Counted from the stretch's first letter, positions 4,428 through 30,349 are shown. The stretch is DNA of 64,000 nucleotides from Escherichia coli (GCF_044324875.1 NZ_CP172185.1); one strand, 5' to 3'. Notes: generated by a model not told the origin, from the letters alone. Numbers and translations are program-made.

Positions 4428-4678
4428 TTATTGAATCCAATATTAAACCAGACAGACAGTAAACATAATACTGTTCCGGATATCGCTTGCCGCAGGAACC
4501 TCCTTAACATTCAGGAAAATAAAGCTTTTATTGCTGCTATGTACCATAAGAGACAGAAGTAATTGATTTACCAGTATTACACCTGTTGAAGCTATGGTTA
4601 TTCACCTTTTATTTTTTGAGCAGCGTATTTATACTTCCCGGAGCATTGTTTAAATATAATCGCCCGGGATTGATTCGT

Positions 4679-9552: not shown

Positions 9553-9601
9553 AGCTTAAACCCTGAACCTCCGCACCTGGAAACAAGCCATCGGTAAAAA
9601 C

Positions 9602-9645
9602 TTACCGCATTGCTTAATGATGTGAACCGAAGTCAACGGAGTTCA
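9602..9645 (+). promoter_or_regulatory. conserved 5' leader motif (copy 2) upstream of YagK-like gene 9791
   Basis: TTACCGCATTGCTTAATGATGTGAACCGAAGTCAACGGAG matches the 2678-2722 motif. Confidence 0.45.
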
Positions 9646-9790
9646 TTCACCCTGAATGTTCTTTCCTGATATTCCCGCTCAGCGTCGGTTCTTCACCTGT
9701 TCCATCAACCTCATCCGCAGCCTGTAACCCGTCAGCCCATCCATCCCCGGGCAGGACGCGTTGTGGGCTGCGCATAACGGAGCATATCCT

Positions 9791-10366
9791 ATGAATGCTT
9801 TCCCTTATTTCGACGACAGCATGGCCCCCTTCTGGCCTTCGTATCAGAACAAAGTTATTGGCGTTCTTGACCGTGCGCTGCGTGAGCAGTCCGGCTCCCG
9901 GATACGTCGTATCCTGCTTCGTCTGCCGTGGGAACCCGATAACACCTTCAGCAGCCGCAGGACCTGGTTCGGTATGGCCTTTATTGAAACCGTCAGCGAC
10001 CTGATGAATGCAACCCCCGGACGTGACCTCTGCTGGCTCCTGACACGTCATCCTGAAAAGCCGGAATACCACGTGGTGCTGTGCGTCAGGCAGGAGTATT
10101 TCGACGGCCCTGAACTGGATCGGCTGATTCTGGATGCCTGGAGCAACGTGCTGGGCTTCGCCTCACCGGGGGAAGCGGCACCGTATCAGAAGCAGATTAC
10201 CCGGGATGTGCTGCTGGATCCCCGTTCACCGGACTGCGAGGAACTGTTCAGAGACCTGATCTGGGCGTTCAGTGATTTCGCACGTGATCGCCGGGGGGTA
10301 TACGATCCGGAAGCCCGTCACCTCGCCGGTAATCCCTGGTATCCCGGATCAGCAGGACGGCGCTGA
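9791..10366 (+). CDS. YagK/YfjJ-like protein (divergent paralog)
   Basis: RIRRILLRLPWEPD and EYHVVLCVRQEY segments analogous to YagK signature; ATG 9791 follows the conserved leader. Confidence 0.45.
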   Translation: MNAFPYFDDSMAPFWPSYQNKVIGVLDRALREQSGSRIRRILLRLPWEPDNTFSSRRTWFGMAFIETVSDLMNATPGRDLCWLLTRHPEKPEYHVVLCVRQEYFDGPELDRLILDAWSNVLGFASPGEAAPYQKQITRDVLLDPRSPDCEELFRDLIWAFSDFARDRRGVYDPEARHLAGNPWYPGSAGRR

Positions 10367-11508: not shown

Positions 11509-14354
11509 ATGAAAATCTGTCTTTACCATACCCTGAATCCTGAAACGATCCCGGGCTATAAAAAGTTTGCGCAGGCCATTGAGGCAGATAATTTCGCGCA
11601 GGCGGATGTGCGTAAAATTGATACTAATCTCTACCGGGCACGCCTCAGTATCCGGGATCGGTTGTTGTTTTCACTTTACCGTTACCGTGGTGAGACGGTC
11701 TGCCTGGTACTGGAATATCTGCGTAACCATGCTTACCACACGTCACGTTTTCTGCGCAGGAATGTGGTGATCGACGAGGCGCGGCTGCAGCTGCAACCGG
11801 TGCCGGATCCGGCAGATGCAGACGCCGGTACACTGACGTATCTCAACCCCACTCACGGGCGTTTTCACTACCTGGATAAAATGCTCTCTTTTGATGATGA
11901 CCAGCAGGCGCTGTATGAACATCCGATGCCACTGGTGATTGTCGGCTCCGCCGGCAGCGGAAAGACGGCACTGTTACTGGAGAAAATGAAGCAGGCCGGG
12001 GGCGATATTCTGTATCTCAGCCTTTCGTCATTTCTGGTGGAAAAAGCCCGCACACTCTATCACGCATCTGGTGAAGAACATGACGGGCAGACCATTGATT
12101 TTCTGTCGCTGAGCGAGTTTCTGGAAACCCTGCGCATTCCGGAAGGGCGGGAGGTGACGTTCAGTGCGTTCAGCAACTGGCTGCCCCGCAACCGGACCAC
12201 CGCTGCACTGGGCTCTGGCCATACCCTGTATGAGGAATTTCGTGGTGTCATTGGTGCCGTTGCTTCTGACAACGGACCGCTGTCCCGGGAGGCGTATCTG
12301 TCGCTGGGAGTACGTCAGTCACTTTATGATATGGATGACCGTCCGGCGGTTTACGCCCTGTTTGAGCGTTATGTTGCATGGCTGAAACAGTCGCGTCAGT
12401 ATGACAGTAATCTTCTCAGCCACCAGTACCTGCCACTGGCCGGGCACCGTTATGATGTGGTTTTTGTGGATGAAGTGCAGGATATGACGCCTGTGCAGCT
12501 GCGGCTGGTTCTGAAAACCCTGCGTCATCCCGGTCAGTTTGTACTCTGCGGCGATGCCAATCAGATAGTTCATCCCAGCTTTTTTCCTGGAGTGCCCTCA
12601 AAAGCCTCTTTTTCCGGCAGCAACAGAACGAGGCTGCCGTGAATATTCTGCAGGCGAATTACCGTAACGGGCACCATGTCACCGCACTGGCTAACCGGCT
12701 GCTCAGACTTAAACTGGCCCGGTTCAGTGCCATTGACCGGGAAAGTCACCATTTTGTCAGAAGCTGCGGGCAGACGGAAGGCACCATCAGGCTGCTGGAA
12801 GACCGGGAAGCCACCCGCCATGAGCTGAACAGCAAAACCTCCCGCTCAAACCGTGTGGCGGTGATTGTGATGCAGCCGGAGCAGAAAGCACAGGCCCGGC
12901 GCTGGTTCAGTACACCGCTGGTTTTTTCGGTTCAGGAAGTGAAGGGGCTCGAGTACGAAACGGTGATCCTGTACAACATGGTCAGCAGTACCCGTAAGGC
13001 ATTTGATGATATCTGCGAAGGGATCAATCCGGCAGATCCTGAGGGTGAGGTGCGTTATGCCCACCCCCGGGACCGGCAGGATCGTTCAGCAGAAATCTAC
13101 AGGTTTTTCACCAACGCGCTGTATGTTGCGCTCACCCGTGCCACGCACAACGTGTACCTTGTTGAGCAGGAGGTGGCCCATCCGCTGTGGTCCCTGCTGG
13201 CCCTCACGCATCATGAAACGCAACTGGAGCTGCAGGAAGAGATTTCCAGCCGTGATGAGTGGCAGAAAACCGCTCACCTGCTGGAAAAACAGGGGAAGCA
13301 GGAGCAGGTGGACACCATCCGCAGTATGATCCTGCAGGAGTCAGAAGTACCGTGGCAGATCTTCAGCGCAGAGGATGCGCGGCAGTGGAAACAGCAGATC
13401 CTCAGCGGGACGGCGGACAAAGCCACGAAACTGCAGGCGCTGGAATACAGCCTGATTTATTCCCTGTTTCCGCTGTATAATGCGCTGTACCGGGAAGATT
13501 TTAAGCCCACAAGGCAGCCCCGGACCCGGAGCCAGCAGTTACTGGAGCAGAAGTATTTTCGTCCCTACTCAGTGAATAATCCGGTCGCCGTGCTGAGGGA
13601 TATTGAACGTTATGGTGTTGATCACCGCTCGCCGTTTAATCTTACGCCGCTGATGCTGGCAGCCCGGGCGGGGAACACGGCGCTGGTTCAGTTGCTGCTG
13701 GATCGTGGTGCCGATCCCACGCTGACGGCAAATGACGGGCTGGCGGCGTATCATCATGTTCTGTCAGCGGCGGTCAGCACGCCCCGTTATGCGCAGCAGA
13801 AGGGGGCACAACTCTATGCCTTGCCGGGACCGGAAAGCCTGTCACTGCAGGTGGAAGGGCGGCTTGTCAAACTGGACAACCGGCAGATGGCAATGTTTCT
13901 GGTGATCCTGATGCAGGCATTGTTTTACACGCATCTGGGGAATGCTCTGGTTTTTTCAGAAGCCTTCAGTGCGGCACGACTGGCAGAGTGTGTCGCCCAC
14001 TTTCCTGAAGCCCTGCTGCCGGAACGCCGCAGGCGGAGGAATTATATCAGCAGCCAGCTTTCTCAGCATGAAGTTAACAGCAAGAACCCTTATGGAAAAA
14101 AGCTGTTTCTGCGACTGAGGCATGGTCAGTATATTCTTAATCCGGGGCTGAAAATCAGGCAGAATGACGGGTGGTACCCGGTTTACGACTTGCAGTCACC
14201 GGAAGATCTCGGTCATGATTTACAGACGTATCTGCAGGACATGCCCCCGTACATTCTGGAGATTCTGGGGGGCAGGAAGGATGTTTACGAACAAAGTAAG
14301 GGGTCTGTCGGATACTGGGTGGCGATGATCCGCCGTCACAGTGGTGAGCCGTAA
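11509..14354 (+). pseudogene. UvrD/Rep-like SF1 helicase with C-terminal ankyrin repeats, split by a frameshift in a T6 tract (12580-12585)
   Basis: Walker A GSAGSGKT, motif II VFVDEVQD, motif III CGDANQ in frame 1; downstream NYRNG, ALTRATH motifs and ankyrin repeat (LTPLMLAARAGNTALVQLLLDRGADP) in frame 3; adding one T restores one ORF of about 947 aa. Confidence 0.7.
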
Positions 14355-16206: not shown

Positions 16207-16324
16207 CACAACACCTGCCGTCAGGTCTTTGCACACCGGGCCATGGCCTGCTGTCGGGCGTTGAGCGCCTGACAGCGGGTTATTGAGAAAGTCAGTCACC
16301 ATGCGCCTGGCTGACAGTCAGGAC

Positions 16325-16545
16325 CTGCACGTCAGCGCCTCCCTTACCCTGGTCAGGACTTCACTGCCTGCCACAAACTCCCGTGTCAGTACTTCGCGGC
16401 CTGACGCGCTCACCCTACTCAGTCCTTCAGAGCCCGCCTCCGGTACCTGGCAAGGCAGACGCCGGGGCGCAATAAAATAAATCAACCATCGCAGGGCGGC
16501 GATCATTCGCAACAACCGCTGATGACGAGCCCAGAAACGTGTCAA
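16325..16545. repeat. copy A of a ~220-bp diverged non-coding repeat (second copy at 22395-22625)
   Basis: about 75 percent identity to 22395-22625, shared core AATAAAATAAATCA-CCATCGCAGGGCG-CGATCATTCGCA and paired internal direct repeats CCCTGGTCAGGACTTCAC / CCGTGTCAGTACTTCGC. Confidence 0.6.
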
Positions 16546-16554
16546 GACGATTTC

Positions 16555-16689
16555 ACCGGAACCGTTTACCCCAAGCAGAGCGGCAATAGATCCGCCTGGT
16601 ACTGTGAAGGATGCATCGCGCAGTGCTTTCTGCCCGTTTCGCCAGGTGACAGTAACGCCATTAACGACAATACCCGCAGATTGCATCAT
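16555..16689 (-). pseudogene. sitB: sitB 5' fragment (ABC transporter ATPase, truncated inside the Walker A motif)
   Basis: first ~45 codons resemble SitB-type ATPase (SFTVPGGSIAALLGVNGSG) then diverge into repeat A; start overlaps sitA stop. Confidence 0.6.
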
Positions 16690-17603
16690 TACTTCTCCCT
16701 TTTCCCGGCTTTAATTCCCTGCACCAGCGTACTGGTAGTAACCTTCAGAAGGTCGATATACGTAGGTACCGGGCCGTTTTCTGTGCTCAGGGAATCGACA
16801 TAGAGCACACCGCCGTAGTGTGCGCCGGTTTCACGCGCAACCTGACGCGCTGGTTTATCGGAAACCGTACTCTCACTAAATACCGCTGGGATATTATTTT
16901 TCTTCACTATATCAACCACTTTACGTACCTGCTGGGGTGTTCCTTGTTGATCGGCATTTATCGGCCACAGATAAAGCTCTTTTAGCCCCAAATCGCGTGC
17001 GAGATAAGAAAAAGCCCCTTCACTGGTGACCATCCATCTTTTATTCTCAGGGAGTTCAGCAATCTGCTTACGCAGGGGGGCAAGGGTTTGGGTAATCTTG
17101 GCTTTATAAGTATCGGCATTACGTTGGTATGTTTTTGCATTTGCCGGATCGTATTTTATCAACGCATCGCGAATATTATCGACGTAAATCAAAGCATTAT
17201 CTGGCGACATCCAGGCATGAGGGTTAGGTTTTCCCTCGTAGGGGCCTTCGGTGATCCCTACTGGCGTCACACCCGAAGAGACAATCACTTCTGGAACACC
17301 ACTGAGATGCTGGTAAAAGCGCTGGAACCACAATTCCAGATTCATACCGTTGGCGAGAATCAGTTGTGCCCCCTGCGCACGTTTAATATCGCCAGGGGTA
17401 GGCTGATACTCATGAATTTCTGCACCGGGCCTGGTTATGGATGAGACTTCTGCAGCATCTCCAGCCACGTTTTTGGCCATATCTGCGATGATGGTAAATG
17501 TTGTAATGACCTTGAATTTTTCAGTTGCACTCGCCTGAAATGCTATCGAGCAGGTGAGGGCGAGGCACCCCAGGAGCATGGTTACTTTTTTTATTGAGTG
17601 CAT
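16689..17603 (-). CDS. sitA: SitA, periplasmic Mn/Fe-binding protein of the SitABCD ABC transporter
   Basis: 304-aa ORF with signal peptide; recognised as the SitA/cluster A-I metal-binding protein family. Confidence 0.8.
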   Translation of the reverse strand: MHSIKKVTMLLGCLALTCSIAFQASATEKFKVITTFTIIADMAKNVAGDAAEVSSITRPGAEIHEYQPTPGDIKRAQGAQLILANGMNLELWFQRFYQHLSGVPEVIVSSGVTPVGITEGPYEGKPNPHAWMSPDNALIYVDNIRDALIKYDPANAKTYQRNADTYKAKITQTLAPLRKQIAELPENKRWMVTSEGAFSYLARDLGLKELYLWPINADQQGTPQQVRKVVDIVKKNNIPAVFSESTVSDKPARQVARETGAHYGGVLYVDSLSTENGPVPTYIDLLKVTTSTLVQGIKAGKREK

Positions 17604-17635
17604 AATTCAGTACCTATAGTGAGTAAAATTAGAAC

Positions 17636-17657
17636 AAACATAGCAACGGCTATGTTT
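17636..17657 (-). promoter_or_regulatory. MntR operator (palindrome AAACATAGC-AACG-GCTATGTTT) in the sitA promoter
   Basis: perfect inverted repeat matching the E. coli MntR box, 33 bp upstream of the sitA start. Confidence 0.7.
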
Positions 17658-17682
17658 TATAGCATAAGCTATACACAATGCA

Positions 17683-17697
17683 AATGATTATCATTAG
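17683..17697 (-). promoter_or_regulatory. Fur box-like site (AATGATTATCATTAG) in the sitA promoter
   Basis: 13 of 15 match to the core of the Fur consensus GATAATGATAATCATTATC. Confidence 0.55.
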
Positions 17698-18237
17698 TAA
17701 TTCAGACCCCAACACAGGCATTAGGTTGTTTCCTGCTGGCGATGTGGTATTGAGGAAAAGCGTAGGACAGATATCAGGCTTTGAAAGTAAGTGTTAAGTT
17801 AAGCGAACGCCGTATTGACGCTTATTTATTGGTGAGTACTACGTTCCATGGCAGGAGTTCGTCATATAGACGATTATCTCAGTAAACATATTTATCCCTC
17901 CTGATAATTGTCTTTAATGATATGTTTTTATTCTTTTTGAAATAACTCACAAAATGATAATCAGGTCTACACAGAAATGTGATACACATCTTGTTTTTTA
18001 AAGAAGAAAAATGACATTGCTCACATATTTATCTGGGTTTATATAAATAATGTAATTATTGTGAAAAGTAACTATTTGATTTTTAAGTATATATTCGCAA
18101 ATCAAATTAGTTAATATTTCAGAGAAATTAGAAGATCTTCACATTTATAAAATCAGAATGTGATTTTTATCTCGGTTTATTACTTGATGATAAAGTATTA
18201 AAGGTTTTAAATATTATGTTTGTATAGGAGTACAATT

Positions 18238-18696
18238 TTGGATATCTATTTTGACGACAGTTTGCTATCCCTGAATCAGAATTTTACATCTCCAGAAGAT
18301 GGTATTCGTTATGCAGGTGAATTATTGCAGAAATCAGGAGCCTGTACATCTGATTATATTGAAGAAATGATCCACACATATCACGAATTTGGCCCAGTTA
18401 TTGTTCTGGATAATGGTGTGGCGATGCCTCATGCTCGACCAGAAAAGGGAGGATTAAAAAGTGCTTTCTCTGTGGTAGTAACAGAATTTCCAGTGATATT
18501 TCATCATCAGGAGTTTGATCCGGTGAATGTCATTATTGCCATCTGTGCCATAGACTCAGATACACATATTCATCTTATTCAGATTGTAGCTGATTTAATT
18601 GAAAGAAATATTGCGTCTTATGTGAGAAATAGTAGCAAAGAGCAGGTCTTATATTTTATCCAGAAATCAATAGAGAGGACGTTATGCTTAAAATAA
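18238..18696 (+). CDS. PTS EIIA component, ascorbate/mannitol-type (PTS_EIIA_2)
   Basis: active-site region GVAMPHARPEKG; start uncertain (TTG 18220 or TTG 18238 after RBS TAGGAG). Confidence 0.65.
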   Translation: MDIYFDDSLLSLNQNFTSPEDGIRYAGELLQKSGACTSDYIEEMIHTYHEFGPVIVLDNGVAMPHARPEKGGLKSAFSVVVTEFPVIFHHQEFDPVNVIIAICAIDSDTHIHLIQIVADLIERNIASYVRNSSKEQVLYFIQKSIERTLCLK

Positions 18697-18965
18697 GAAC
18701 TGTATGCGGCAATGGGATTGGTAGTTCATTAATGGCAGCGAATAATGTTAAAAAAATTTGTGAGGAAATGGGCATAAAAGCAGATGTAGCCTCGGTCGAT
18801 TTTGCTAACGCAGTTGGGGAAAATGCTGATCTGTATATCACTGTTAAAGAGTTTGCCTCACAATTTCCATCTCAGTATAGAGTCGCTGTGATCCGTAGTT
18901 ATGTACATAAGGTGAAAATTGAAGAGGATGTTAAAGATACTTTACAGAAACTGAGTCAATTCTGA
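18684..18965 (+). CDS. PTS EIIB component (UlaB/SgaB-like)
   Basis: 93-aa ORF with N-terminal CGNGIGSS phospho-cysteine motif. Confidence 0.7.
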   Translation: MLKIRTVCGNGIGSSLMAANNVKKICEEMGIKADVASVDFANAVGENADLYITVKEFASQFPSQYRVAVIRSYVHKVKIEEDVKDTLQKLSQF

Positions 18966-18985
18966 TATTTTACAGGGGGTATATT

Positions 18986-20380
18986 ATGACATCAATTCTT
19001 TTAACTCTTACAGAAATCTTCAGTCAACCAGCCTTCCTTATGGGGATTATTTCTTTGGCTGGATTACTGTCATTACGTTCGCCACTTAATAAATTACTAA
19101 CTGGTACACTGAAACCAATCCTCGGTTATTTAATGTTGAGTGCAGGTGCCGGTGTGATTGTTTCAAATTTAAATCCTCTGGGTGGTATTATCGAAGCTGG
19201 ATTTAATATAAGAGGCGTTATACCTAATAATGAAGCGATCGTATCAGTAGCTCAGAAATTACTTGGTGTGGAAACCATGAGCATTTTATTGCTCGGATTT
19301 ATTTTTAATCTTGTCATTGCACGATTTACTAAATATAAGTACATATTTTTAACAGGACATCATTCATTCTTTTTAGCGTGCTTATTTTCTGCGGTATTAC
19401 AGGCTGCGCATTTTAGTAACGGGGAATTGGTCATTATAGGCGGTTTCCTGCTGGGAGCATGGTCTGCGATTTCTCCAGCAATCGGGCAACGTTATACCAG
19501 ACGAGTGACTGAGGATGGAGGGATTGCCATGGGACACTTTGGCTCCTTGGGTTATTATCTGTCAGCCTGGATTGCAGCGAAAGTTGGTAAAGCAGACACA
19601 TCATTTGCTGATACTGAAATTTCTGAAAAATGGGGCTTCCTGCGTGATACCACAGTGACTACCGGTATTGTAATGGTTGTTATTTATCTGGTATGCAGTA
19701 TTGTTGCTGGTTCCGCATATATCAGTACAATTACCGAGCAGAATCTGGTGACCTTCTCCATCCTGTCCGGTCTACAGTTTGCGGTAGGAGTTGCTATTGT
19801 CTACAGTGGTGTGCGTTTAATCCTAGGCGATCTTGTCCCCGCATTTCAGGGGATTAGCCAGAAACTGATACCGAACTCAATTCCGGCTGTTGACTGTGCG
19901 GTATTCTTCACTTTCAGTCCTACTGCAGTGGTGATTGGCTTTATCTGTTCTTTTTTAGGTGGCCTTGTTGGTATGTTGATACTGGGGGGGGTTGGTATGG
20001 CGCTGATTATCCCTGGCATGGTTCCGCACTTCTTCTGTGGTGGTACCTCTGGTGTATTTGCAGATAAGCTTGGAGGTAAAAAAGGTTGTATTATTGCGTC
20101 GTTTATTGGCGGTATTTTCCTCGCTTTTTTACCCGCAATGTTGTTACCTGCACTGGGAAATCTCGGTTTTGAAAACAGTACCTTTGCAGACTTTGACTTC
20201 GCTGTATGGGGGATTGTTATCGGTGAGGCCTTTACTCACTTCGGACAAATTGCTGTTTATATTATTTGTGCTGTTATGAGCCTGGTATTACTGATCCCGT
20301 TTGCTTTTAAATCCATAAAAGTTGTAGGAAATACAATGAGCTATGAAGAGTTAACGAAAAAAGATTATGCTGACAAGTAA
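18986..20380 (+). CDS. PTS EIIC permease (UlaA/SgaT family)
   Basis: 464-aa polytopic membrane protein directly after EIIB; RBS AGGGGG. Confidence 0.7.
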   Translation: MTSILLTLTEIFSQPAFLMGIISLAGLLSLRSPLNKLLTGTLKPILGYLMLSAGAGVIVSNLNPLGGIIEAGFNIRGVIPNNEAIVSVAQKLLGVETMSILLLGFIFNLVIARFTKYKYIFLTGHHSFFLACLFSAVLQAAHFSNGELVIIGGFLLGAWSAISPAIGQRYTRRVTEDGGIAMGHFGSLGYYLSAWIAAKVGKADTSFADTEISEKWGFLRDTTVTTGIVMVVIYLVCSIVAGSAYISTITEQNLVTFSILSGLQFAVGVAIVYSGVRLILGDLVPAFQGISQKLIPNSIPAVDCAVFFTFSPTAVVIGFICSFLGGLVGMLILGGVGMALIIPGMVPHFFCGGTSGVFADKLGGKKGCIIASFIGGIFLAFLPAMLLPALGNLGFENSTFADFDFAVWGIVIGEAFTHFGQIAVYIICAVMSLVLLIPFAFKSIKVVGNTMSYEELTKKDYADK

Positions 20381-20414
20381 ACACAATATTAGTGTAAAGT
20401 ATTAAGGAGTTGTT

Positions 20415-21386
20415 ATGGCTATAATTACTATAGGACTATCCTGTTTTGACCAGTTTTTTTATATAAACAGATGGCCAAAAGAGAATACTAAAAACTTTTC
20501 CTGTGATTTTATTGAAAGTGGTGGCGGCCCCTGTGCCAATGCAGCATGGTTGCTGGGTTTATGGGGCGAGTGTGTGTACTTCTCAGGCCATCTACAAAAC
20601 GATATCTATGGACAGAAAATTATAGATGAGTTTCATGATGTTGGAGTAAATACAGATTATGTGATTTTCAATAATCAAATGCTTACACCGCTGGCATCTA
20701 TACTAGTGAATCAATTAAATGGTTCAAGAACGATTATAACACGCAAACAGAATTATCCCCCACGAATGACATTTGAAGAAAAGCTGAAAATAGATGAATT
20801 GATTACACATCTGACATATGATGATAAAAAGGAAGTTATTACAATATTAATTGACGGCCATGAACCTGAGTTGAGTGAATATATTATACAGCGAATGCCA
20901 GATGCCCGAGTCGTGATGGACGCAGGCTCTCTTCGGGAGAGTAATTTAAATCTGGCTAAATACACAGACTATCTGGTTGCCAGTGAAAACTTTGCCTGTG
21001 AACTATCTGGAATTGAAAAATTTACATCTGATATACAGTTAAACGAAGCTTTAACAGAACTTAATAAATTGTCCCGAGGTCAGCCCTTTATTACTCTTGG
21101 TGAGAGAGGATGTGCATATCTGAAGAATGGAATACCTACAATATCACCAGCTTTTATTTGTAATGCAATCGATACAACAGGTGCCGGTGATGTTTTTCAT
21201 GGTGCTTTTACGTATGGTGTTCATTACAACTGGCATATTGATAATATTATTTTGTTTGCCAGTCTGGCTGCAGCTATTTCTGTTGAAAAAAAAGGTGTCC
21301 GCGAATCCATACCTGATTTAGCTGATGTCCATAATGCTATAAATCAATATGAAAGAAGTAGAGAAAAATACTTTACTTCATTTTAA
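20415..21386 (+). CDS. PfkB-family carbohydrate kinase
   Basis: 323-aa ORF with DTTGAGDVFHGAF motif. Confidence 0.7.
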   Translation: MAIITIGLSCFDQFFYINRWPKENTKNFSCDFIESGGGPCANAAWLLGLWGECVYFSGHLQNDIYGQKIIDEFHDVGVNTDYVIFNNQMLTPLASILVNQLNGSRTIITRKQNYPPRMTFEEKLKIDELITHLTYDDKKEVITILIDGHEPELSEYIIQRMPDARVVMDAGSLRESNLNLAKYTDYLVASENFACELSGIEKFTSDIQLNEALTELNKLSRGQPFITLGERGCAYLKNGIPTISPAFICNAIDTTGAGDVFHGAFTYGVHYNWHIDNIILFASLAAAISVEKKGVRESIPDLADVHNAINQYERSREKYFTSF

Positions 21387-21409
21387 GTTATACACAAGCA
21401 AGAGGAAAT

Positions 21410-22276
21410 ATGATGTTAGTTTCTATAGAGAATATGCTTAATCGTGCCCTTGTACATCAGTACGCAGTTGGTCAGTTTAATATCAATAACCTGGAGTGGA
21501 CAGGTACTGTGTTAAATGTTGCACAAAAATTACGTTCTCCGGTTATTTTAGGCGTCTCCGGTGGCACTATAAAACATATGCTTGGGCTGAAATGTATTCA
21601 CGATATTGTTGTTAACGCAATGGAATTCCTGGAAATAGATGTGCCGGTGGCTTTACATCTTGATCACGGTCAGTCTTATGAGGCTTGTGAGGCGGCAATT
21701 AAAGCAGGTTTCAGCTCAGTAATGTTTGACGGTTCACATATGCCTTTTGCCGAAAATCTGGCAATAACAAAACGTCTGGTGAAGTATGCCCATCGTCGGG
21801 GAGTATCTGTGGAAGCAGAGCTAGGCACGATTGCAGGAAGTGAAGATGGCATTGTTAATTCCCGAGTGATTTATGCAGATCCTACAGAATGTAAGCAACT
21901 TGTTGAGGAGACAGGAGTGGATTGTCTGGCTGCAGCACTTGGTTCCACACATGGATTATATAAAGGAAAAGCAAAACTCGGTTTTGCGGAAATGGAACAT
22001 ATATCACAGTTGGTAAAAGTACCCCTGGTACTTCATGGGGGCACAGGTATTTCAGATACGGATATGAAAAAAGCTATTTCACTTGGCACAGCAAAAATCA
22101 ATGTTAATACCGAAAATATGTATGCGTGGTGTTTGTCAGTGAAAGAACAGTTTGAACATAAGGGGGAACATGATATTAATGATCCCCGAAAAGTTATTAC
22201 GAAAGGATTGCAGCCAGTTGCAGAACGAGTGGCAGAACGAATGAGCCTGTTCGGCTCTGTTGGACAGTCCCTCTGA
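21410..22276 (+). CDS. class II ketose-bisphosphate aldolase (GatY/KbaY/Fba family)
   Basis: 288-aa ORF with N-terminal QYAVGQFNINNLE and metal-ligand region LHLDHG. Confidence 0.7.
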   Translation: MMLVSIENMLNRALVHQYAVGQFNINNLEWTGTVLNVAQKLRSPVILGVSGGTIKHMLGLKCIHDIVVNAMEFLEIDVPVALHLDHGQSYEACEAAIKAGFSSVMFDGSHMPFAENLAITKRLVKYAHRRGVSVEAELGTIAGSEDGIVNSRVIYADPTECKQLVEETGVDCLAAALGSTHGLYKGKAKLGFAEMEHISQLVKVPLVLHGGTGISDTDMKKAISLGTAKINVNTENMYAWCLSVKEQFEHKGEHDINDPRKVITKGLQPVAERVAERMSLFGSVGQSL

Positions 22277-22394
22277 ACTGTTACAGTTTCCTGCAGGTCG
22301 TCATTCATTCAGGCAATCTGCAGGATTGAACTATATTAGACATCCAGGAATAATTCCCTTCCACAGGGGGCACGGAGGATTGAAATTGCACTGA

Positions 22395-22625
22395 ATGGGG
22401 AATTTGTTAACGTCGCCCTTACCATGGTCAGGATTTCACGCCCTGTTACAAACACTCGTGTCAGTATTTCTTGGCCCTATTCAGTACTCCTCACTACCTG
22501 CCAACGACACCGCTAGGAAAAACGCCCGCGTGTAATAAAATAAATCAGCCATCGCAGGGCGCCGATCATTCGCATGCATCGCTGATGACGCGCCCAAACA
22601 AGCGTCAAGATGAGTTAACCTGAAC
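22395..22625. repeat. copy B of the ~220-bp diverged repeat
   Basis: aligned by eye to 16325-16545; lies between the convergent aldolase gene and the lsrK remnant. Confidence 0.6.
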
Positions 22626-22631
22626 AATTCG

Positions 22632-22968
22632 TTATAAGCCCGGTGCCTTCCACAAAGAAGTTGTCAACCCGTGATCGACCAAGCTCAACTGTTCCTGATA
22701 TACAGCCCGCCATTTTTCGAGCAATTCCTGATAAAGCTCATGTTTTCTTTTGTCCGGAACATGCTACCTTTCCCAGCTCACCAGGCATTCTCCCGTTTCG
22801 TCCATAGATGAGTAGATACCTGCCCCTACACCAGCAGCAATCGCACAGCCCAGTGCCGTTGCCTCTTTGACTACAGGAACATTAACTGGTAGCCCTGACA
22901 CATCAGCCAGAATCTGGCTCCAGAGTTCTCCTTTTGCACCACCTCCCGCAAATACCAGAGATGAAGGG
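22632..22968 (-). pseudogene. lsrK: lsrK (autoinducer-2 kinase, FGGY family) 3' end, distal piece, separated from the rest by the IS66 insertion
   Basis: reverse-strand translation ...[47 protein letters not shown]...[13 protein letters not shown]. Confidence 0.65.
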
Positions 22969-23004
22969 TAAGCGTACAGCGAGGGCCGTATTGACGGGGA
23001 TGTG

Positions 23005-24543
23005 TTATTCAGCTGGCAGTGCTATGCGCCACGGAAGCAGTTCGCTGACCCGGTTGACCGGCCAGTCTGCTATGACGCCAAGCACATGGCGAAGGTAGCT
23101 TTCTGGATCCACGTCATTCAGTTTGCACGTCCCTATCAGGCTGTACAGTAGCGCTCCCCGCTCACCACCATGGCCAGAGCCGAAGAACAGGAAGTTTTTA
23201 CGACCCAGACTTACCGCCCGCAGGGCATTTTCAGCGATGTTGTTGTCGATTTCCACCCAGCCATCGTTCGCATAGTACGTCAGTGCCGGCCACTGGTTAA
23301 GTGCGTACGCGAACGCCTTCGCCAACTCTGAGTGTCGCGACAGGGTCTTCATCTTTTCACGCAACCAGCTTTCCAGGGATTTCAACAGCGGTTTCGTTTT
23401 TCGCTGACGTTCAGCAAGCCGCTGCTCTGCCGGCATTCCCCTTATATCCGCCTCTATGGCGTACAACTGACCGATCTGCTCCAGGGCTTCTTCCGTCAGT
23501 GCTGACGGGATGCGGACGTGCACATCGTGGATCTTTCGGCGGGCATGAGCCCAGCAGGCAGCTTCCGTTATCCCACCATTGCGATACAGCTCGTTGAACC
23601 CGGCGTACGCATCCGCTTGCAGCACACCGCTGAAGCAAGCAAGATGAGTCTGCGGATGGATGCCTTTTCTGTCCGGGCTGTAAGCGAACCACACTGCAGG
23701 TGCCAACGCTGACCCGGCATTGCGGTCATCACGAACATACGCCCACAACCGCCCGGTCTTCGTCTTCTTATTACCCGGCATCAGTACCTGGACCGGGGTA
23801 TCATCGGCATGGAGTTTGCCGTCAGTCATGACATAGCCATGAAGCGCCTCTTCCAGCGGAGACAGCAGCCGGCAGCATGCATCCACCCAGCCCGACAGCA
23901 GTGAACGGCTCAGCTCCACACCTTGCCGGCCGTATATTTCTGACTGGCGATACAGCGGGGTGTGCTCTGCATACTTCGAGGTCAGCACGCGGGCCAGCAG
24001 CCCCGGTCCGGCGATACCCCGCTCGATGGGCCGCGAAGGTGCAGGTGCCTGCACGATGGCATCGCACTGAGTACAGGCATGTTTTTCCCGTACCGTCCGG
24101 ATAACCCGGAAGGCGCTACGCATCAACTCCAGCTGTTCGGCGGTATCCTCGCCCAGATAGCTCAGTGAACCGCCGCAGTTCGGGCAGCACGGCGCCGCAG
24201 GCAACAGTCGCTTTTCGTCACGGGGTAGTGATTCAGGGAACGGCTTACGGATGCGGGTCTGACGCAACGGACGCTGTACTGCCGGGTCATACACCCTACC
24301 AGTCAGCGTATCGCTCTCTTTCTGAAGCCGGTTCAGATCGGCTTCCATTTGTGCGATACGGCGGGAGACTTTTTCGGAACGACTGCCGAAGTTCATCCGG
24401 CGGAGTTTATCCAGCTGCGCCTGCAGATGGTCTATTTCGCGCTCCCGGTTGCTCAGCTTTTCCTGCAGGGCGTGGATCAGCGCTTCCTGTTCGGCCAGGC
24501 GCTGTTTCAGCAGGAAGATGTCGTCAGAAGAGATGTCGTTCAT
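23005..24543 (-). CDS. IS66-family transposase TnpC
   Basis: 512-aa ORF with zinc-finger-like CCPNCGG and C-terminal [12 protein letters not shown] segment. Confidence 0.85.
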
Positions 24544-24592
24544 AAGCCCGTATTTTACCGGGCTTATTCTGTGACAACCAGGATAAAGAGAT

Positions 24593-24940
24593 TTACAGCA
24601 TGGTCAGGGAGGTCAGCAGCCGCTTAGGCTGTCGCCAGTCGATACCTTCCAGCAGCATCGCCAGCTGCGCCTGTGTAAGGAACACTTTGCCATCACGGGC
24701 TGACGGCCAGGCGAAGCGCCCACGCTCCAGCCGTTTGGTCAGGAGGCACAGTCCGTCACCGGTGGACCACAGCAGTTTAACCTGACTGCCGCTGCGGCCC
24801 CGGAAAATGAAAACATGGCCGGACATGGGATCGTCTTTCAGCGCCGTCTGTACTTTCGCAGCCAGGCCGTTGAAGCCATTTCTCATATCGGTGATACCGG
24901 CAACCAGCCAAATTTTGGTCCCGGAAGGTAAAGGGATCAT
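24593..24940 (-). CDS. IS66 Orf2 (TnpB)
   Basis: 115-aa [33 protein letters not shown]... typical IS66 Orf2. Confidence 0.85.
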
Positions 24941-25338
24941 CGCTTCAGTTCCTGTATCAGCAGAGTCAGGAGCTTTTCGCTGACATTGCCATTGAAGCGG
25001 AGCGTCCCGTGCCGGAACGTTACCTCACAGCTGATACTGAGGGTTTCCGGGTCCTCTGCGAGCGATTCTGGCTGTTCGGCAGCTGCATCGAGAGTCACAG
25101 GAAGTAGCTGGGGGCTCTCTGAAGAAGGTAATAGCAGCTTTCCCTCGCGCCATTGTTGTCGCCATTTGAACAACAGATTGGCGTTAATGCCATTTTCAAG
25201 AGCAAGTTTTGAGATGGATATCCCGGGTTCACAGGAGGCAGCAACGAGCTGCTGTTTAAATTCGGGAGGATAATTAGGGCAGCCTTTTCGCCTGCCGGGA
25301 GTCACATTTTTCTGCATATCTGACACTTTGGTTCCCAC
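24937..25338 (-). CDS. IS66 Orf1 (TnpA)
   Basis: 133-aa ORF overlapping Orf2 start by 4 bp. Confidence 0.8.
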   Translation of the reverse strand: MGTKVSDMQKNVTPGRRKGCPNYPPEFKQQLVAASCEPGISISKLALENGINANLLFKWRQQWREGKLLLPSSESPQLLPVTLDAAAEQPESLAEDPETLSISCEVTFRHGTLRFNGNVSEKLLTLLIQELKR

Positions 25339-25409
25339 TACTTATTTGGTGGACACCACTTTGTCTAATTCGTCAGATTCTGACCAGACGGTTCAGGCTG
25401 TACGCTTAC

Positions 25410-25666
25410 GATGAAGGATGGATCCCTGTAAAATCAGCAATCTGCGACAAATTACATGTTGAAACAATGGCTGCATTCTCTTCCAAGGCGCGAAACAAAG
25501 TTGCCTTATTACATTTTTCCGGATCGATCGACAGGTTTAGAAATGAAGGAGCCGCGTGGTACCAACTTTTGAAACGCATCCTGTCAGAGAATATCGGCAT
25601 CACTCCCCATGCTCCTGCTGGTACACGGGAAGCCATTTCCTCCAGTAGTGTATAAGTATCGACTCC
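25410..25666 (-). pseudogene. lsrK: lsrK internal piece (5'-truncated); continues across the IS66 insertion
   Basis: [42 protein letters not shown]... matches the C-terminal third of LsrK; no N-terminal two-thirds present. Confidence 0.6.
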
Positions 25667-25670
25667 CAGA

Positions 25671-25714
25671 CTGCAAAATCGCATCGTGTTCGATCGCCGA
25701 TTCGCATCGCATCC
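25671..25714. mobile_element. solo terminal fragment of an IS21-family element
   Basis: CTGCAAAATCGCATCGTGTTCGATCGCCGATTCGCATC resembles the multi-repeat terminus of the IS21-family element at 33380-33431. Confidence 0.5.
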
Positions 25715-25821
25715 CCTTACCCACAAGTTGAAATAGTAGTATTGTATTGATAAATCATAAATTTTTATGGAGGGGTTATGGATAACTGGATTACTCAGGA
25801 ATTCAAATCGCTGGATACAGG

Positions 25822-26240
25822 GTAAGCGGCTCGCCAGAACCGTATTGATATTTACTGAGAGGTCAGATCAACTTTCCAGGGCAACAGATCGCGTACCCGG
25901 TTTGCCGGCCAGTCCTGGATATGCTCAATAACGTAACGCAGCCATTTTTCTGGCTCCACATTGTTCAGACGGCATGTGCCGATCAGTGAGTACAACACCG
26001 CCGCATGTTCGCCACCGCTGTCGGAACCCGCGAAGAGCCAGTTTTTCCGGCCTACGGCCACTCCCCGTAAGGCGTTCTCTGCGATGTTGTTGTCGATTTC
26101 CGCCTGACCATTATGCAGTACACGTTCAGCGCATCCCACTGTTTCGGCAGGCATGCGAACGCTTTTACTGTATCCGGGTGACGCGACAGTGTTTTCATCT
26201 GTTGCTGTATCCAGTCATACTACGCCAGCATCATTGGTAG
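25822..26240 (-). mobile_element. IS66-family remnant: terminal repeat plus frameshifted tnpC 3' fragment
   Basis: GTAAGCGGCTCGCC terminus at 25822; ORF 25852-26154 with [23 protein letters not shown]; upstream homology continues in another frame. Confidence 0.65.
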
Positions 26241-26306: not shown

Positions 26307-27539
26307 TTACGGACGGGCAGCCAGAAGACACAGTTGAAATGCCACATTATACGATTCCTCAAAGGATTTTAGAGGTAGAAACTCAAATATGGAGTGAAAA
26401 TTATGTGCGCCAGTAAAAAAATTAGGCGTCAAAATTCCTCTGGCTGACAGAACTGCACCATCAGTTCCACCACGCATTGGTATCGGTTTTGGTGTAATTC
26501 CCAGCATATTCATGGACTCAAAGAGTAGATCTACAGCACGTCTGTCTTTGTTTAAAGCATTACTAATATTGCTGTAGATATCAGTGATCGTGAACTCAAC
26601 CCTGGCTGTCGGATATCGGGAAGATATTTTATGTGCAACAGCAGCAATCTGTTGTTTTCTGCGAGTAAAACTGGATTGATCAAAATCACGTATACTTGCC
26701 TGTAACACAGCATTACTTTGTCCGGCATTCATACCATTGAACCAGATATAACCTTCACGACCAGCGGTATTCTCCGGTGTTTCAAGGCGATCAAATTCAT
26801 TTATGTAATCACAGGCCATCAGTAATGGATTAACTAATACATTTTTTGCAGACATCGGATGTGCCGTTACACCAGTAAAACGGATCTCTGCAGATGCAGC
26901 GTTAAAGTTTTCATAAACAATCTCTCCTGACTCGCAACAGTCAATTGTCCAGGCAAAGTCAACAGAAAAACGTTGTAAATCAAGAGACTTAGCTCCACGC
27001 AAGCCTGTTTCCTCATCAGGGACAAATGCAACCACAATATCACCATGCTGATGTTCTGAGGTCAGATTCTCCAGCATAGTCATCACTACCGAAACAGCGG
27101 CTTTATTATCAGCCCCTAGTACACTTGTTCCGTCGCTGAAAATAATGTCTTCCCCCCGATATTTCAGAATTTCGGGATGCTCTTTGACCCGCAGCCAGAT
27201 ATCTTTTTCTGCATTGAGACACAAATCTTCACCTGTAAATTTCAAAATTTGTGGATGAATATCCGGAGATAAACCAACATCTACTGTATCAATATGAGTA
27301 ATGAAACCAATTCGAGGCGCACCCGGAATATTACCTTTTTTCACCGCGGTGACCGTTGCATGCTCATCAACAATAATATCGTCCATATCCAGCAACGCCA
27401 GTTCATCTGCAAGTGTCCGGGCCATCTCATACTGTCCTTGTGTGGACGGAAGGGATGCTGAATTTGGGTCACTCTGGCTACTGATTGAAAGGTAGCGAAA
27501 GAAACGTTGGATTAATTGACTGCTTAATGGGGAGTACAT
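26307..27539 (-). CDS. peptidase T-like tripeptidase (M20B family)
   Basis: motifs GADNKAAV, PDEETGLRGA, RGGTDGA parallel to PepT. Confidence 0.7.
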   Translation of the reverse strand: MYSPLSSQLIQRFFRYLSISSQSDPNSASLPSTQGQYEMARTLADELALLDMDDIIVDEHATVTAVKKGNIPGAPRIGFITHIDTVDVGLSPDIHPQILKFTGEDLCLNAEKDIWLRVKEHPEILKYRGEDIIFSDGTSVLGADNKAAVSVVMTMLENLTSEHQHGDIVVAFVPDEETGLRGAKSLDLQRFSVDFAWTIDCCESGEIVYENFNAASAEIRFTGVTAHPMSAKNVLVNPLLMACDYINEFDRLETPENTAGREGYIWFNGMNAGQSNAVLQASIRDFDQSSFTRRKQQIAAVAHKISSRYPTARVEFTITDIYSNISNALNKDRRAVDLLFESMNMLGITPKPIPMRGGTDGAVLSARGILTPNFFTGAHNFHSIFEFLPLKSFEESYNVAFQLCLLAARP

Positions 27540-27657
27540 AACTTTTCCTTCTTTTTTTGTGTTATGAGGTGAATGCAATACGCATTTAATGTTATTTATT
27601 AATCTGTAACCGATGCGGATTCATCACTCCATATTGTCAAAGAAAACAGGAAAAGTC

Positions 27658-29250
27658 ATGGTAAGAAGATTAGCGACTATTGCACCGTTACTGGTTGCGT
27701 TGGGTGTAAGCTCAACTGTTTATGCAAAGACACTGGTTTACTGCTCTGAAGGCTCACCTGAGAGTTTTAATCCTCAGCTTTATACTTCGGGGACCAGTGT
27801 TGATGCAAGTGCTGTTCCGGTGTATAACCGACTGGTTGATTTTAAGGTGGGCACTACTGTGCTGGTTCCCAGCCTGGCTGAACGATGGGAAATCAGTGGT
27901 GACGGGAAAGCATATACTTTTTATCTGCGTAAAGGCGTTAAATTTCACAGTAATAAATACTTTACTCCAACGCGAGAGTTTAATGCTGATGATGTTATTT
28001 TTTCATTTATGCGCCAGAAGGATCCTGGTCATCCATATCACCAGGTTTCTGGTGGAACGTATTCTAATTTTGAAAGTCTGGAATTCAGTTCACTCATAAC
28101 CAGTATCGACAGAGTTGATGATCATACAGTTCGCTTTAATCTTTCACATCCGGAGGCTCCCTTTATTGCTGATTTAGCCTGGTATTTTGCTTCTGTTTTA
28201 TCCGCTGAATATGCTGATGCTATGCTTAAAGCCGGAACACCTGAACGGGTTGATATGAATCCAATTGGGACAGGGCCATATCAACTCAAACAATATCAGA
28301 AAGATTCGCGTATTTTATTTACGGCTTTTGATGATTACTGGGAGGGGAAAGCAAAACTGGAACGCATTGTTTTCAGTATCACACCAGATTCCTCAGTGCG
28401 TCTGGCTAAACTGGAGAAAAATGAGTGTCAGGTGATGCCGTTTCCTAATCCATCAGATCTTTCCAGAATCAAAAAAAATCCGGCTCTTAAATTGATGAGT
28501 AAAGCCGGACTTAATACAGGTTTTCTTGCTTTCAATACGCAAAAAGCTCCTCTGGATAATGTAAAAGTTCGTCAGGCACTGGCAACAGCAATTAATAAAA
28601 ATGCCATTATAGATGCTGTATTTCAGGGGACTGGTAGTGCTGCTAAAAATCTGCTGCCACCAGGAGTATGGAGTGCAGACAGTGAATTGAAAGATTATGA
28701 ATATGATCCAGAAAAAGCCAGATCATTGCTAAAAGAAGCTGGTTTTGATAATGGAATGACTATTGATCTTTGGGCGATGCCAGTTCAACGCCCTTATAAC
28801 CCAAACGCTAAACGAATGGCCGAAATGATTCAGGCTGACTGGGCAAAAGTGGGAGTAAAAACAAACATTATCACTTTTGAATGGGGGGAATATCTTAATC
28901 GTATAAAGAACGGAGAGCATCAGGCTGCGTTGATGGGATGGACAACCGCAACAGGTGATCCTGATAATTTTTTTGGTCCACTCTTTACCTGCACTTCTGC
29001 TAACGGTGGTTCTAATTCCGCGAAGTGGTGCTACAAACCTTTCGATGAAATTATTTCTCAGGCTAAAGTAATAACTGATCAGGAAAAACGAGCAGTGCTC
29101 TATAAAAAAGCACAACAGATGATGCATGAACAAATACCAGCGGTGATGATTGCACATTCCACCATTTTTGAACCAATACGCAGTGAAGTCACAGGTTATG
29201 AAATAGATCCATTTGGTAAACATATTTTTTATCAGGTTGATATAAAATAA
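27658..29250 (+). CDS. ABC transporter periplasmic substrate-binding protein, family 5 (DppA/OppA-like peptide-binding)
   Basis: signal peptide plus SBP_bac_5-like length and composition; no permease or ATPase genes adjacent. Confidence 0.65.
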   Translation: MVRRLATIAPLLVALGVSSTVYAKTLVYCSEGSPESFNPQLYTSGTSVDASAVPVYNRLVDFKVGTTVLVPSLAERWEISGDGKAYTFYLRKGVKFHSNKYFTPTREFNADDVIFSFMRQKDPGHPYHQVSGGTYSNFESLEFSSLITSIDRVDDHTVRFNLSHPEAPFIADLAWYFASVLSAEYADAMLKAGTPERVDMNPIGTGPYQLKQYQKDSRILFTAFDDYWEGKAKLERIVFSITPDSSVRLAKLEKNECQVMPFPNPSDLSRIKKNPALKLMSKAGLNTGFLAFNTQKAPLDNVKVRQALATAINKNAIIDAVFQGTGSAAKNLLPPGVWSADSELKDYEYDPEKARSLLKEAGFDNGMTIDLWAMPVQRPYNPNAKRMAEMIQADWAKVGVKTNIITFEWGEYLNRIKNGEHQAALMGWTTATGDPDNFFGPLFTCTSANGGSNSAKWCYKPFDEIISQAKVITDQEKRAVLYKKAQQMMHEQIPAVMIAHSTIFEPIRSEVTGYEIDPFGKHIFYQVDIK

Positions 29251-30349
29251 CAGGTGTAAGCTCCGTCTGTGACGTCTGGTGATAGTTGTCCAGTCTGGTA
29301 ACAATAGCGTCCATCTATACAGATGGACGCGAATGATGAATTTTCAGACAACAAGATATTGATGGTTTTCGTTTTTATCTGCCCGACGCATTACGTCTAA
29401 TATTCGAAGAACAATTATCTGTCTGGTTAATCGCTCATCAGTCAGGGCTAAGTCATTTCACCATCACGATTTCTTTTAACGATTACCCGAATGAGCAAAG
29501 TGAGGATGATGCCATGACGCAGGTCAGAGCGACCAGCACCGCGACAATTAATAAAACAGGAAGGCTGCGCGTTTCAGACAGTGATGTCAACATAAACTAT
29601 CAGTAACGTTAACTGCATCAGAAGCACAAGTATGGATTTTGCCATTGTGCAGAACGACTTGTCCATGGGAAATAATAAATTTAATAAAAAAAGAAAGATA
29701 TGGTTGCAAATAGTATAATATCCCGGGCAACGATCCTGATTTTCTCAATACATGTTTTCCTCACGTATTTGTTCTTCAAAGAGCAATCAGCATCTGTTAC
29801 TGAATGGTTGTTATAAGCATTAAAAGAATAACGGGAAGTCGGTGACGTGGGGATATGTCGCGTGTTGAATTATACAAAGGGCCGACATCTTCATGGTGTC
29901 GGCCAGTCATAAGTGCCAGATATTAACCGTCAGTTACAGGGGGTAACCGCAGGAAACAGGCTACGCTCCGGGTAACGGGTTATCAATAGTTACTTATTTG
30001 CTTAATTTAATTAATTTTGTTCTGCGTCATTGCGTTTCCTTACTGGTATAAATAATGATCGATTGCTTTTCGCATGAGCATCAGAATTTGTCGTAATTTG
30101 AGGTACTGTCGCTGCACATGCAGGAATATGGTTCTGTCAGCGACAGATTGCCGTTGCTGACCGGAATGTTCAGGCTGGATGGTGATATTACAACTGATAT
30201 TGCTGTGCTGATGGCAGAATGGTAAACGTTAAGTGCGCGTTCCAGGCAATGAAGGCAAACACGTCATGACAGCAACGCAAAACAAACCAAGAACGCGCAG
30301 TATTTTTTATCCCGAATGAAAGCGATTGTCCATATCCGGTAATAAATAT

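Follow-up and report, generated by a model that had tools for sequence, protein, structure and literature searches.

A 64,000-nucleotide stretch of Escherichia coli DNA (GCF_044324875.1, NZ_CP172185.1; hereafter the window) contains, at 18238–22276, five co-directional genes on the plus strand that encode a complete sugar phosphotransferase system (PTS), a PfkB-family kinase and a class II aldolase. The first gene (18238–18696) encodes an EIIA protein of 152 residues (PF00359), with the phosphorylatable His65 in the motif AMPHARPEKG, and starts with a TTG codon that has AGGAG 7 nt upstream. It is followed by the genes for EIIB (18684–18965; 93 residues, PF02302), with Cys8 in MLKIRTVCGNGIGSS, and for EIIC (18986–20380; 464 residues), a PF03611 (EIIC-GAT) protein of the Asc/Gat superfamily, which we do not take for an ascorbate transporter (see below). 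The last two genes encode a PF00294 kinase of the YihV/ribokinase branch (20415–21386; 323 residues), predicted to be a ketose-phosphate 1-kinase, and a metal-dependent ketose-bisphosphate aldolase (21410–22276; 288 residues, PF01116) of the Bacillus fructose-bisphosphate aldolase (FBA) type. The families were assigned with NCBIfam and with precomputed Pfam matches of other E. coli copies, and both concur. All five open reading frames (ORFs) are intact, and none differs in length from its counterparts in the other E. coli copies; the EIIA and EIIB genes overlap by 13 nt, the remaining intergenic gaps are 20–34 nt, and there is no internal terminator of note. This agrees with an original prediction made from the window, which had listed the same five genes, and their content and order support the route that it proposed, namely PTS uptake, a second phosphorylation and aldol cleavage.

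The cassette was also predicted to be AT-rich, and the computed GC content is 39.6%, compared with 48.5% for the rest of the window; the spacer upstream falls to 0.25–0.31, whereas the IS66 and sit flanks lie at 0.51–0.61. The low GC content, together with a patchy spread (8 of 5426 complete E. coli genomes, at 99.1% identity and always in IS66-rich islands), supports the horizontal acquisition that had been suggested. No regulator gene adjoins the cassette in the window, the upstream neighbour being the divergent sitA and the downstream one an lsrK gene broken by an IS66-family element. The absence of a linked regulator, as predicted, is thus confirmed, but given the CRP-like boxes upstream it probably reflects global, rather than absent, control.

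Judged by sequence, the cassette is the E. coli orthologue of Klebsiella pneumoniae KPN00353–KPN00349 (etcABC-pfkB-fba), and a horizontally acquired member of the etc operon family. Searches with tblastn identified a K. pneumoniae chromosome with an EIIC 85–86% identical to that of the cassette, at a locus that fits the published KPN00354–KPN00348 layout, with a peroxiredoxin gene 346 nt upstream and a convergent amidohydrolase gene downstream. The genes for EIIA (147 residues) and EIIB (95 residues) lie 5 nt apart in this locus, and are followed by those for EIIC, the PfkB kinase and Fba. The identities to the cassette proteins (tblastn) are 48% for EIIA, 77% for EIIB, 85% for EIIC, about 60% (59–72%) for the kinase and 77% for the aldolase. 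EIIA is the weakest link in this orthology, and the His65 motif AMPHARPEKG is present in both proteins. The two operons share the five families (etcA/KPN00353, etcB/KPN00352, etcC/KPN00351, the PfkB gene KPN00350 and the class II fba KPN00349), their order and strand, and the lack of a linked regulator. They differ in that the Klebsiella locus is a resident chromosomal one of 54% GC, present in most isolates (PMC5770620), whereas the E. coli copy has 40% GC and lies in the rare IS66-bounded islands; its nearest kin is Morganella-like (EIIC 91% identical), and not Klebsiella.

The five Klebsiella genes form one transcript, as determined by reverse-transcription PCR (PMC5770620). EtcA binds and inhibits the glycerol kinase GlpK, and His65 was mutated in the GlpK-binding study (PMC5770620). 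Overexpression of etcABC raises cyclic AMP (cAMP), type 3 fimbriae, biofilm and capsule (PMC5770620, PMC6629953, PMC7914778, PMC10406186), whereas etcABC deletion mutants have capsule and type 3 fimbriae at wild-type amounts. The orthology ties a previously anonymous cassette of an E. coli island to a Klebsiella operon with a reported part in cAMP signalling and in the formation of type 3 fimbriae, biofilm and capsule. The original prediction had presented the cassette as a system for an unidentified substrate, and had named close orthology to an operon of known substrate as the observation that would speak against this. The orthologue found is the etc operon, whose own sugar is likewise not known, and orthology therefore leaves the substrate as it was; the cassette itself does not count as uncharacterised, as the K. 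pneumoniae operon has been named and partly studied. The same papers describe the etc system as unique to K. pneumoniae, which is contradicted by the cassette in E. coli, Morganella, Yersinia, Orbus and other genera.

No plasmid was found to carry the cassette; the single strong match labelled as a plasmid is a mislabelled Klebsiella chromosome. This entry (CP125156.1, K. pneumoniae strain 176, our locus L100) is listed in PLSDB as "plasmid unnamed2", but its size of 5.37 Mb and the presence of secD, tgt, queA and malZ identify it as a chromosome. The etc EIIC and kinase genes of strain 176 appear frameshifted, with the tblastn matches split over two frames.

The EIIC protein is 28% identical to E. 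coli UlaA, its one solved relative. It scores 514 bits with NF006919, and 421 bits with the UlaA equivalog NF009549, well below the cut-off of 890. We mapped the ten ascorbate contacts of UlaA (T86, Y87, H135, I136, Q139, H194, Q195, D314, I358 and F362; PMC6048161) onto the cassette protein, which has N, E, H, H, F, H, F, D, V and F at these positions. Five of the ten are changed (T86N, Y87E, I136H, Q139F and Q195F), His135, His194, Asp314 and Phe362 are kept, and Ile358 is replaced by Val. The resulting pocket signature, A-N-E-H-H-F-H-F-R/K-D-V-F, is shared by 120 of 131 aligned sequences, Arg/Lys alternation aside, and by nearly all of the 120 best homologues; most of the remaining variants are alignment gaps or single substitutions. 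One uniform pocket that differs from that of UlaA indicates one conserved substrate, which is not ascorbate. The similarity to UlaABC (SgaTBA) is thus one of fold family (PF03611), of the three-protein EIIA/EIIB/EIIC layout and of the mechanistic residues, as Gly58, Gly286, Arg288, His135, His194 and Asp314 are conserved in the cassette EIIC. The difference lies in half of the substrate contacts and in the accompanying enzymes, a kinase and an aldolase in the cassette, and a lactonase, a decarboxylase and epimerases in Ula.

The best solved relative of the kinase is the sulfofructose kinase YihV (7ag6, E = 4e-32), well ahead of ribokinases, and the protein scores below every NCBIfam equivalog cut-off. 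Its invariant residues include the catalytic Asp259 of the GAGD motif and the sugar-binding Asp12, Asn42 and Glu150. YihV phosphorylates C1 of a ketose carrying an anion at C6, with the sulfonate bound by the triad K27-R138-N109 (PMC8006165). In the cassette kinase K27 corresponds to the invariant K26, R138 to D147, an invariant Asp of a DGHE motif, and N109 to the variable N113. Additional basic residues are conserved in the family, namely Arg105 and those of an insertion comprising Thr109, Arg110 and Lys111. We read the protein as a putative kinase that acts on C1 of a ketose whose distal group is a phosphate and not a sulfonate.

The aldolase passes the Bacillus-type FBA model TIGR01859 (360.8, cut-off 343.05), does not reach the narrower PRK07709 (374, cut-off 545), and is 56% identical to the B. 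anthracis FBA (3q94). The motifs HLDHG, EAELG, STHG, LHGGTG, NVNTEN and DPRK are conserved, and the alignment with 3q94, 4to8 and 7nc7 shows that the metal and catalytic residues are kept (Asp-His of HLDHG, Glu of EAELG, two further His, and Asn of NVNTEN). The arginine of the PGR/PAR motif of Bacillus FBAs is replaced, the cassette sequence being GLQ. The Arg of DPRK is kept in all gammaproteobacterial copies and, by motif mapping rather than structural superposition, would be the partner-subunit Arg that binds the distal phosphate. To the chains of 8q57 and 8q58, which we take to be SqiA structures, the cassette aldolase scores only about 194 bits. In sulfofructose-phosphate (SFP) aldolases, Ala257 takes the place of the distal-phosphate Arg (PMC10665668). 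We also considered 7nc7 and 7ncc as SFP aldolases and rejected them, because their residues 51–52 do not match the published Gln51/Lys52, so that they are ordinary FBA-type entries. In Cetobacterium and in a metagenome-assembled genome (MAG) of the Eubacteriales the aldolase slot is occupied by a different class II subfamily (33–38% identity), which argues for generic bisphosphate cleavage. The cassette aldolase is therefore predicted to be of the FBA type, cleaving a bisphosphate.

Taken together, these observations favour a self-contained, horizontally acquired catabolic operon of the etc type, in which a neutral ketose of D-threo configuration would be taken up by the PTS, phosphorylated at C1 and cleaved by an aldol reaction. 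We give this reading a probability of about 0.6, and each of its steps is what we infer for the E. coli copy. The phosphoryl group would pass from phosphoenolpyruvate to the EI and HPr proteins of the host, then to His65 of EIIA and Cys8 of EIIB. EIIC would bind a neutral ketose, and not ascorbate, and the sugar would enter with a phosphate on its distal primary hydroxyl, as a ketose omega-phosphate with a free dihydroxyacetone end (C1–C3). The YihV/ribokinase-like PfkB kinase would then phosphorylate C1, and the resulting 1,omega-bisphosphate would be cleaved by the Bacillus-type class II aldolase to dihydroxyacetone phosphate (DHAP) and an aldose phosphate.

The five-gene module is found with differing flanks in Morganella (kinase 83% identical to that of the window), Yersinia (68%) and Orbus (60%). 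In [Pasteurella] mairii the module begins with the aldolase gene and has a linked RpiR/AlsR-like regulator, and further modules are present in Vibrio, in Cetobacterium and in the Eubacteriales MAG, which has a PRD-type activator. The etc-type operon is therefore a mobile module distributed over at least three phyla, which corrects the literature. No hydrolase, isomerase or dehydrogenase gene is linked at any module locus examined, so that two phosphorylations and one aldol cleavage suffice, which points to a ketose. EIIC proteins with the same pocket also occur with other partner enzymes. Streptococcus porcinus and Caproiciproducens pair such an EIIC with a TIGR02134 transaldolase and have neither kinase nor aldolase there; in Veillonella the partner is an unrelated PfkB kinase alone, and in Tissierella the orthologous kinase alone. 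The substrate of a transaldolase is a ketose phosphate with a free C1–C3 unit and D-threo (3S,4R) configuration, a configuration that FBA-type aldolases also require once C1 has been phosphorylated. The simplest common denominator of the transaldolase and FBA-type partners is thus a PTS product like fructose 6-phosphate or sedoheptulose 7-phosphate. Stereochemically, the partner enzymes indicate a D-threo (3S,4R) substrate, which neither tagatose nor psicose matches. The intermediate is probably like fructose 6-phosphate, which would yield DHAP and glyceraldehyde 3-phosphate, or like sedoheptulose 7-phosphate, which would yield DHAP and erythrose 4-phosphate. This suggests that the candidates for the sugar can be narrowed to D-threo ketoses, such as fructose and sedoheptulose.

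The transaldolase genes within the same-pocket PTS operons encode the short Staphylococcus-type enzyme (TIGR02134), at 9392–10111 of locus L095 and at about 4497–5213 of loci L098 and L099, and this operon type appears to be uncharacterised so far. The scan of genome contigs gave, among the matches listed, mostly kinase-only homologues of 33–41% identity, which come from MAGs of Bacilli, Mollicutes and other groups and whose gene neighbourhoods gave no clue to function. Such kinase genes stand without PTS or aldolase genes nearby in dozens of cases (loci L019–L094), and two adjoin pyruvate phosphate dikinase; these lone homologues may be housekeeping phosphofructokinase-like enzymes of reduced genomes.

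Upstream of the cassette, an AT-rich promoter and leader region (17928–18237, plus strand) travels with the genes, as the similarity to the eight other copies in E. coli begins at 17928. An Rfam scan of 17500–23000 for riboswitches and leader RNAs found nothing relevant, and a sigma-70 consensus scan of the spacer found no convincing promoter, as would be expected of an activator-dependent one. The spacer contains two CRP-like boxes on the plus strand, each with 8 of 10 consensus positions: a distal one (18128–18143, TTAGAAGATCTTCACA), about 102 nt before the start codon, and a proximal one (18159–18174, TGTGATTTTTATCTCG), centred about 71 nt before it. The 31-bp spacing between the boxes is kept in five taxa (E. 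coli, two Morganella species, Yersinia and Orbus), and so is their distance to the start codon in E. coli, the two Morganella species and Yersinia, whereas both boxes lie 25 nt closer in Orbus. The proximal box matches at 10 of 10 positions in Orbus, is present in Morganella and Yersinia, and is partial in Klebsiella. The window as a whole has 37 matches of at least 8/10 to the CRP consensus, compared with 37.5 expected, which is chance density, and four of these cluster upstream of the cassette, within 240 bp (17936–18174). This cluster and the conserved 31-bp spacing suggest tandem CRP control, with the caveat that the two boxes can also be read as a single inverted repeat, TCACATT-N11-AATGTGA. 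In the Enterobacterales, tandem CRP-like boxes, and not a dedicated regulator, probably drive transcription of the putative operon.

Several observations weigh against the catabolic reading or parts of it. Were the PTS product plain fructose 6-phosphate, PfkA and FbaA would already do the work of the kinase and the aldolase in every enterobacterial host, making both redundant. The hydroxyl that is phosphorylated is one that we infer from the partner enzymes only. The regulator directly upstream of the P. mairii module (locus L006, 3954–4805) scores 442 with the NCBIfam AlsR/RpiR model (cut-off 400), and such an AlsR-like protein may point to a ligand of the allose or psicose type, at odds with the 3S stereochemistry. 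With just 23% identity between the Veillonella kinase and that of the window, the Veillonella context is a weak parallel. As to transcription, the distal CRP-like box is degenerate in Klebsiella, a further difference between the two operons, and a Klebsiella crr deletion lowers cAMP and yet raises etcABC mRNA, which does not fit simple CRP activation (PMC7914778). The Klebsiella authors themselves call the etc sugar unknown (PMC7914778); no member of the family has an experimentally identified substrate, and the available parts of the Klebsiella etc papers report no growth tests on candidate sugars.

A more specific and rather doubtful version of the catabolic route is one dedicated to a heptulose such as sedoheptulose, with PTS uptake, a sedoheptulose-7-phosphate 1-kinase and a sedoheptulose-1,7-bisphosphate aldolase giving DHAP and erythrose 4-phosphate. 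If true, it would explain why enzymes of the fructose-6-phosphate type are duplicated in hosts with PfkA and FbaA, the Firmicutes would solve the same problem by a transaldolase encoded beside the same EIIC, and a widespread orphan branch of the Asc-family PTS would gain its first substrate. In other respects, the cassette is an ordinary accessory catabolic operon that follows the known logic of PTS, kinase and class II aldolase. A sedoheptulose-bisphosphate bypass, in which phosphofructokinase and FBA act on sedoheptulose 7-phosphate, operates in tal mutants of E. coli and in clostridia that degrade cellulose. The bypass resembles the proposed route in that a kinase and a class II FBA convert a heptulose 7-phosphate to DHAP and erythrose 4-phosphate, and it fits the transaldolase alternative beside EIICs of the same signature; it differs in relying on promiscuous housekeeping enzymes, with no dedicated PTS. 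To our knowledge, a dedicated, PTS-linked sedoheptulose bypass has not been described, and the literature on sedoheptulose PTS, on fructose uptake in Veillonella, and on orphan Asc-family systems with an aldolase or a sugar kinase yielded nothing specific.

The EII proteins could instead act mainly as regulators, as proposed for Klebsiella EtcABC, with EIIA titrating or binding partners (GlpK, adenylate cyclase) and so altering cAMP, fimbriae, biofilm and capsule, and with the catabolic genes playing a minor part. All phenotypes published for the orthologue are indeed regulatory (PMC5770620, PMC6629953, PMC7914778, PMC10406186), no substrate is known for it, and the E. coli copy lies in a virulence-type island by a SPATE (serine protease autotransporter of Enterobacteriaceae) gene, sit and lsr. 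However, the phenotypes arise on overexpression and the deletions are as wild type in capsule and type 3 fimbriae, and EIIA, the supposed effector, is the least conserved protein (48% identity), while the EIIC pocket is strictly conserved in three phyla and always linked to an enzyme metabolising a ketose phosphate, so that we consider a mainly regulatory role unlikely. A catabolic route of the tagatose/galactitol type, from a tagatose phosphate via tagatose 1,6-bisphosphate to a GatY/KbaY-like aldolase, appears improbable as well. It shares its three-step logic with the known D-tagatose and galactitol pathways (PMC10101011), the EIIC belongs to the Asc/Gat superfamily (PF03611), and the aldolase matches the GatY and KbaY models at 215–270 bits. 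These pathways (PTS, TagK/FruK/PfkA and GatYZ/KbaYZ) likewise combine a PTS, a PfkB-family kinase and class II cleavage to DHAP and glyceraldehyde 3-phosphate, but the tagatose EIIC is of the fructose family, and the kinase is of the 1-PFK/LacC branch, whereas that of the cassette is of the ribokinase/YihV branch. The tagatose-aldolase models all stay below cut-off (251 against 443 for TIGR01858, 270 against 383 for PRK12737), whereas the FBA model passes, and AgaY scores 196 bits, compared with 337 for the Bacillus FBA. In addition, the GatZ/KbaZ partner gene, which an FBA-type aldolase does not need, is absent from every context examined, and the transaldolase partner in Firmicutes demands the 3S,4R configuration, whereas tagatose is 3S,4S.

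The kinase could also suggest a sulfoglycolytic module, similar to sulfo-EMP2, with a sulfofructose kinase and a class II sulfofructose-1-phosphate aldolase. YihV is its top solved relative, several homologues are named "sulfofructose kinase" by JGI, and class II SFP aldolases share their Pfam family with the cassette aldolase (PMC10665668). The sulfo-EMP pair (YihV/SqiK and SqiA) likewise phosphorylates C1 of a ketose with a distal anion and then produces DHAP with a PF01116 aldolase, but the anion-binding residues differ in both enzymes: of the YihV triad K26 is kept, whereas D147 is an invariant Asp and N113 is not conserved, and the aldolase has, by motif mapping, an Arg where SFP aldolases have Ala257, besides its low score to 8q57/8q58. 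Uptake in the cassette is by a PTS, which would add a phosphate without a place in that pathway, and no sulfonate-handling genes (sulfoquinovose isomerase, sulfolactaldehyde reductase or exporter) are linked, which makes a sulfoglycolytic role very improbable. A paralogue of the L-ascorbate (Ula) uptake system is just as remote a prospect, even though RefSeq names the protein "PTS ascorbate transporter subunit IIC", a name carried by NF006919, and UlaA is its sole solved relative. The low identity to UlaA, the five changed contacts and the score far below the equivalog cut-off all argue otherwise, and neither the window nor any related locus examined contains ulaG, ulaD, ulaE or ulaF (encoding UlaG, UlaD, UlaE and UlaF). 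The "ascorbate family" of the original prediction is hence correct only at the superfamily level, while the sugar acid that it allowed for is unlikely. Uptake and cleavage of a neutral D-threo ketose remains the reading that we prefer.

The window is a mosaic chromosomal island of a type found mostly in poultry isolates of E. coli, and the carriers of the cassette among the complete genomes are mostly chicken and wild-bird isolates. The other E. coli copies have an IS66-family element on one side of the cassette and a complete lsrRK-lsrACDBFGE operon on the other, with a SPATE protease gene nearby. A solo remnant resembling an IS66-family terminal repeat (17802–17820; direct-repeat family D2, strand not assigned) is 89% identical to the inner IS66 left end at 22978–22996, and on this side of the cassette the other E. 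coli have a complete ISEc23. The divergent upstream neighbour sitA (16689–17603, minus strand), for an iron/manganese ABC substrate-binding protein, is intact, unlike the remainder of the sit operon, which has been lost. The ORF at 16318–16689 starts like sitB and then diverges, so that the operon ends after about 45 codons of sitB, and the iron/manganese transporter is therefore non-functional here.

Downstream, a 3′ fragment of lsrK (22634–22967, minus strand) covers residues 419–530 with one internal stop, and is 98% identical (tblastn) to LsrK of locus L001. It is followed by a complete IS66-family element (22968–25409, minus strand) with tnpA, tnpB and tnpC, recognised by the NCBIfam TnpA, TnpB and TnpC models, and with inverted repeats at 22968–22989 and 25388–25409. 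The upstream part of lsrK resumes at 25406–25726 (minus strand), and the element has therefore inserted into lsrK, which encodes the autoinducer-2 (AI-2) kinase. The remainder of the lsr operon of the other E. coli islands is missing from the window, and an extra IS66 TnpC fragment is present at 25852–26154. A functional link to AI-2 through the lsr adjacency was rejected, because this adjacency is not kept in other genera. A 104-nt direct repeat, with 82% identity between its copies at 16459–16562 (by the sitB stub) and 22522–22625 (just 3′ of lsrK), flanks the block formed by sitA and the cassette, and may represent either a small mobile element or a scar left by recombination.

Further away, a 571-residue ORF at 12639–14354 is annotated as a UvrD helicase or an ankyrin-repeat protein in related E. 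coli, and matches no NCBIfam family. The window has a second block of low GC content (about 41%) within 26307–30000, with genes for a PepT peptidase and a DppA-like binding protein. From about 43 kb (about 43000–64000) the window matches an integrative element of the SPI-7/PAPI type, with ParA, ParB, a DnaB-like helicase and an integrase, and a leoA gene lies between this element and the PepT/DppA block.

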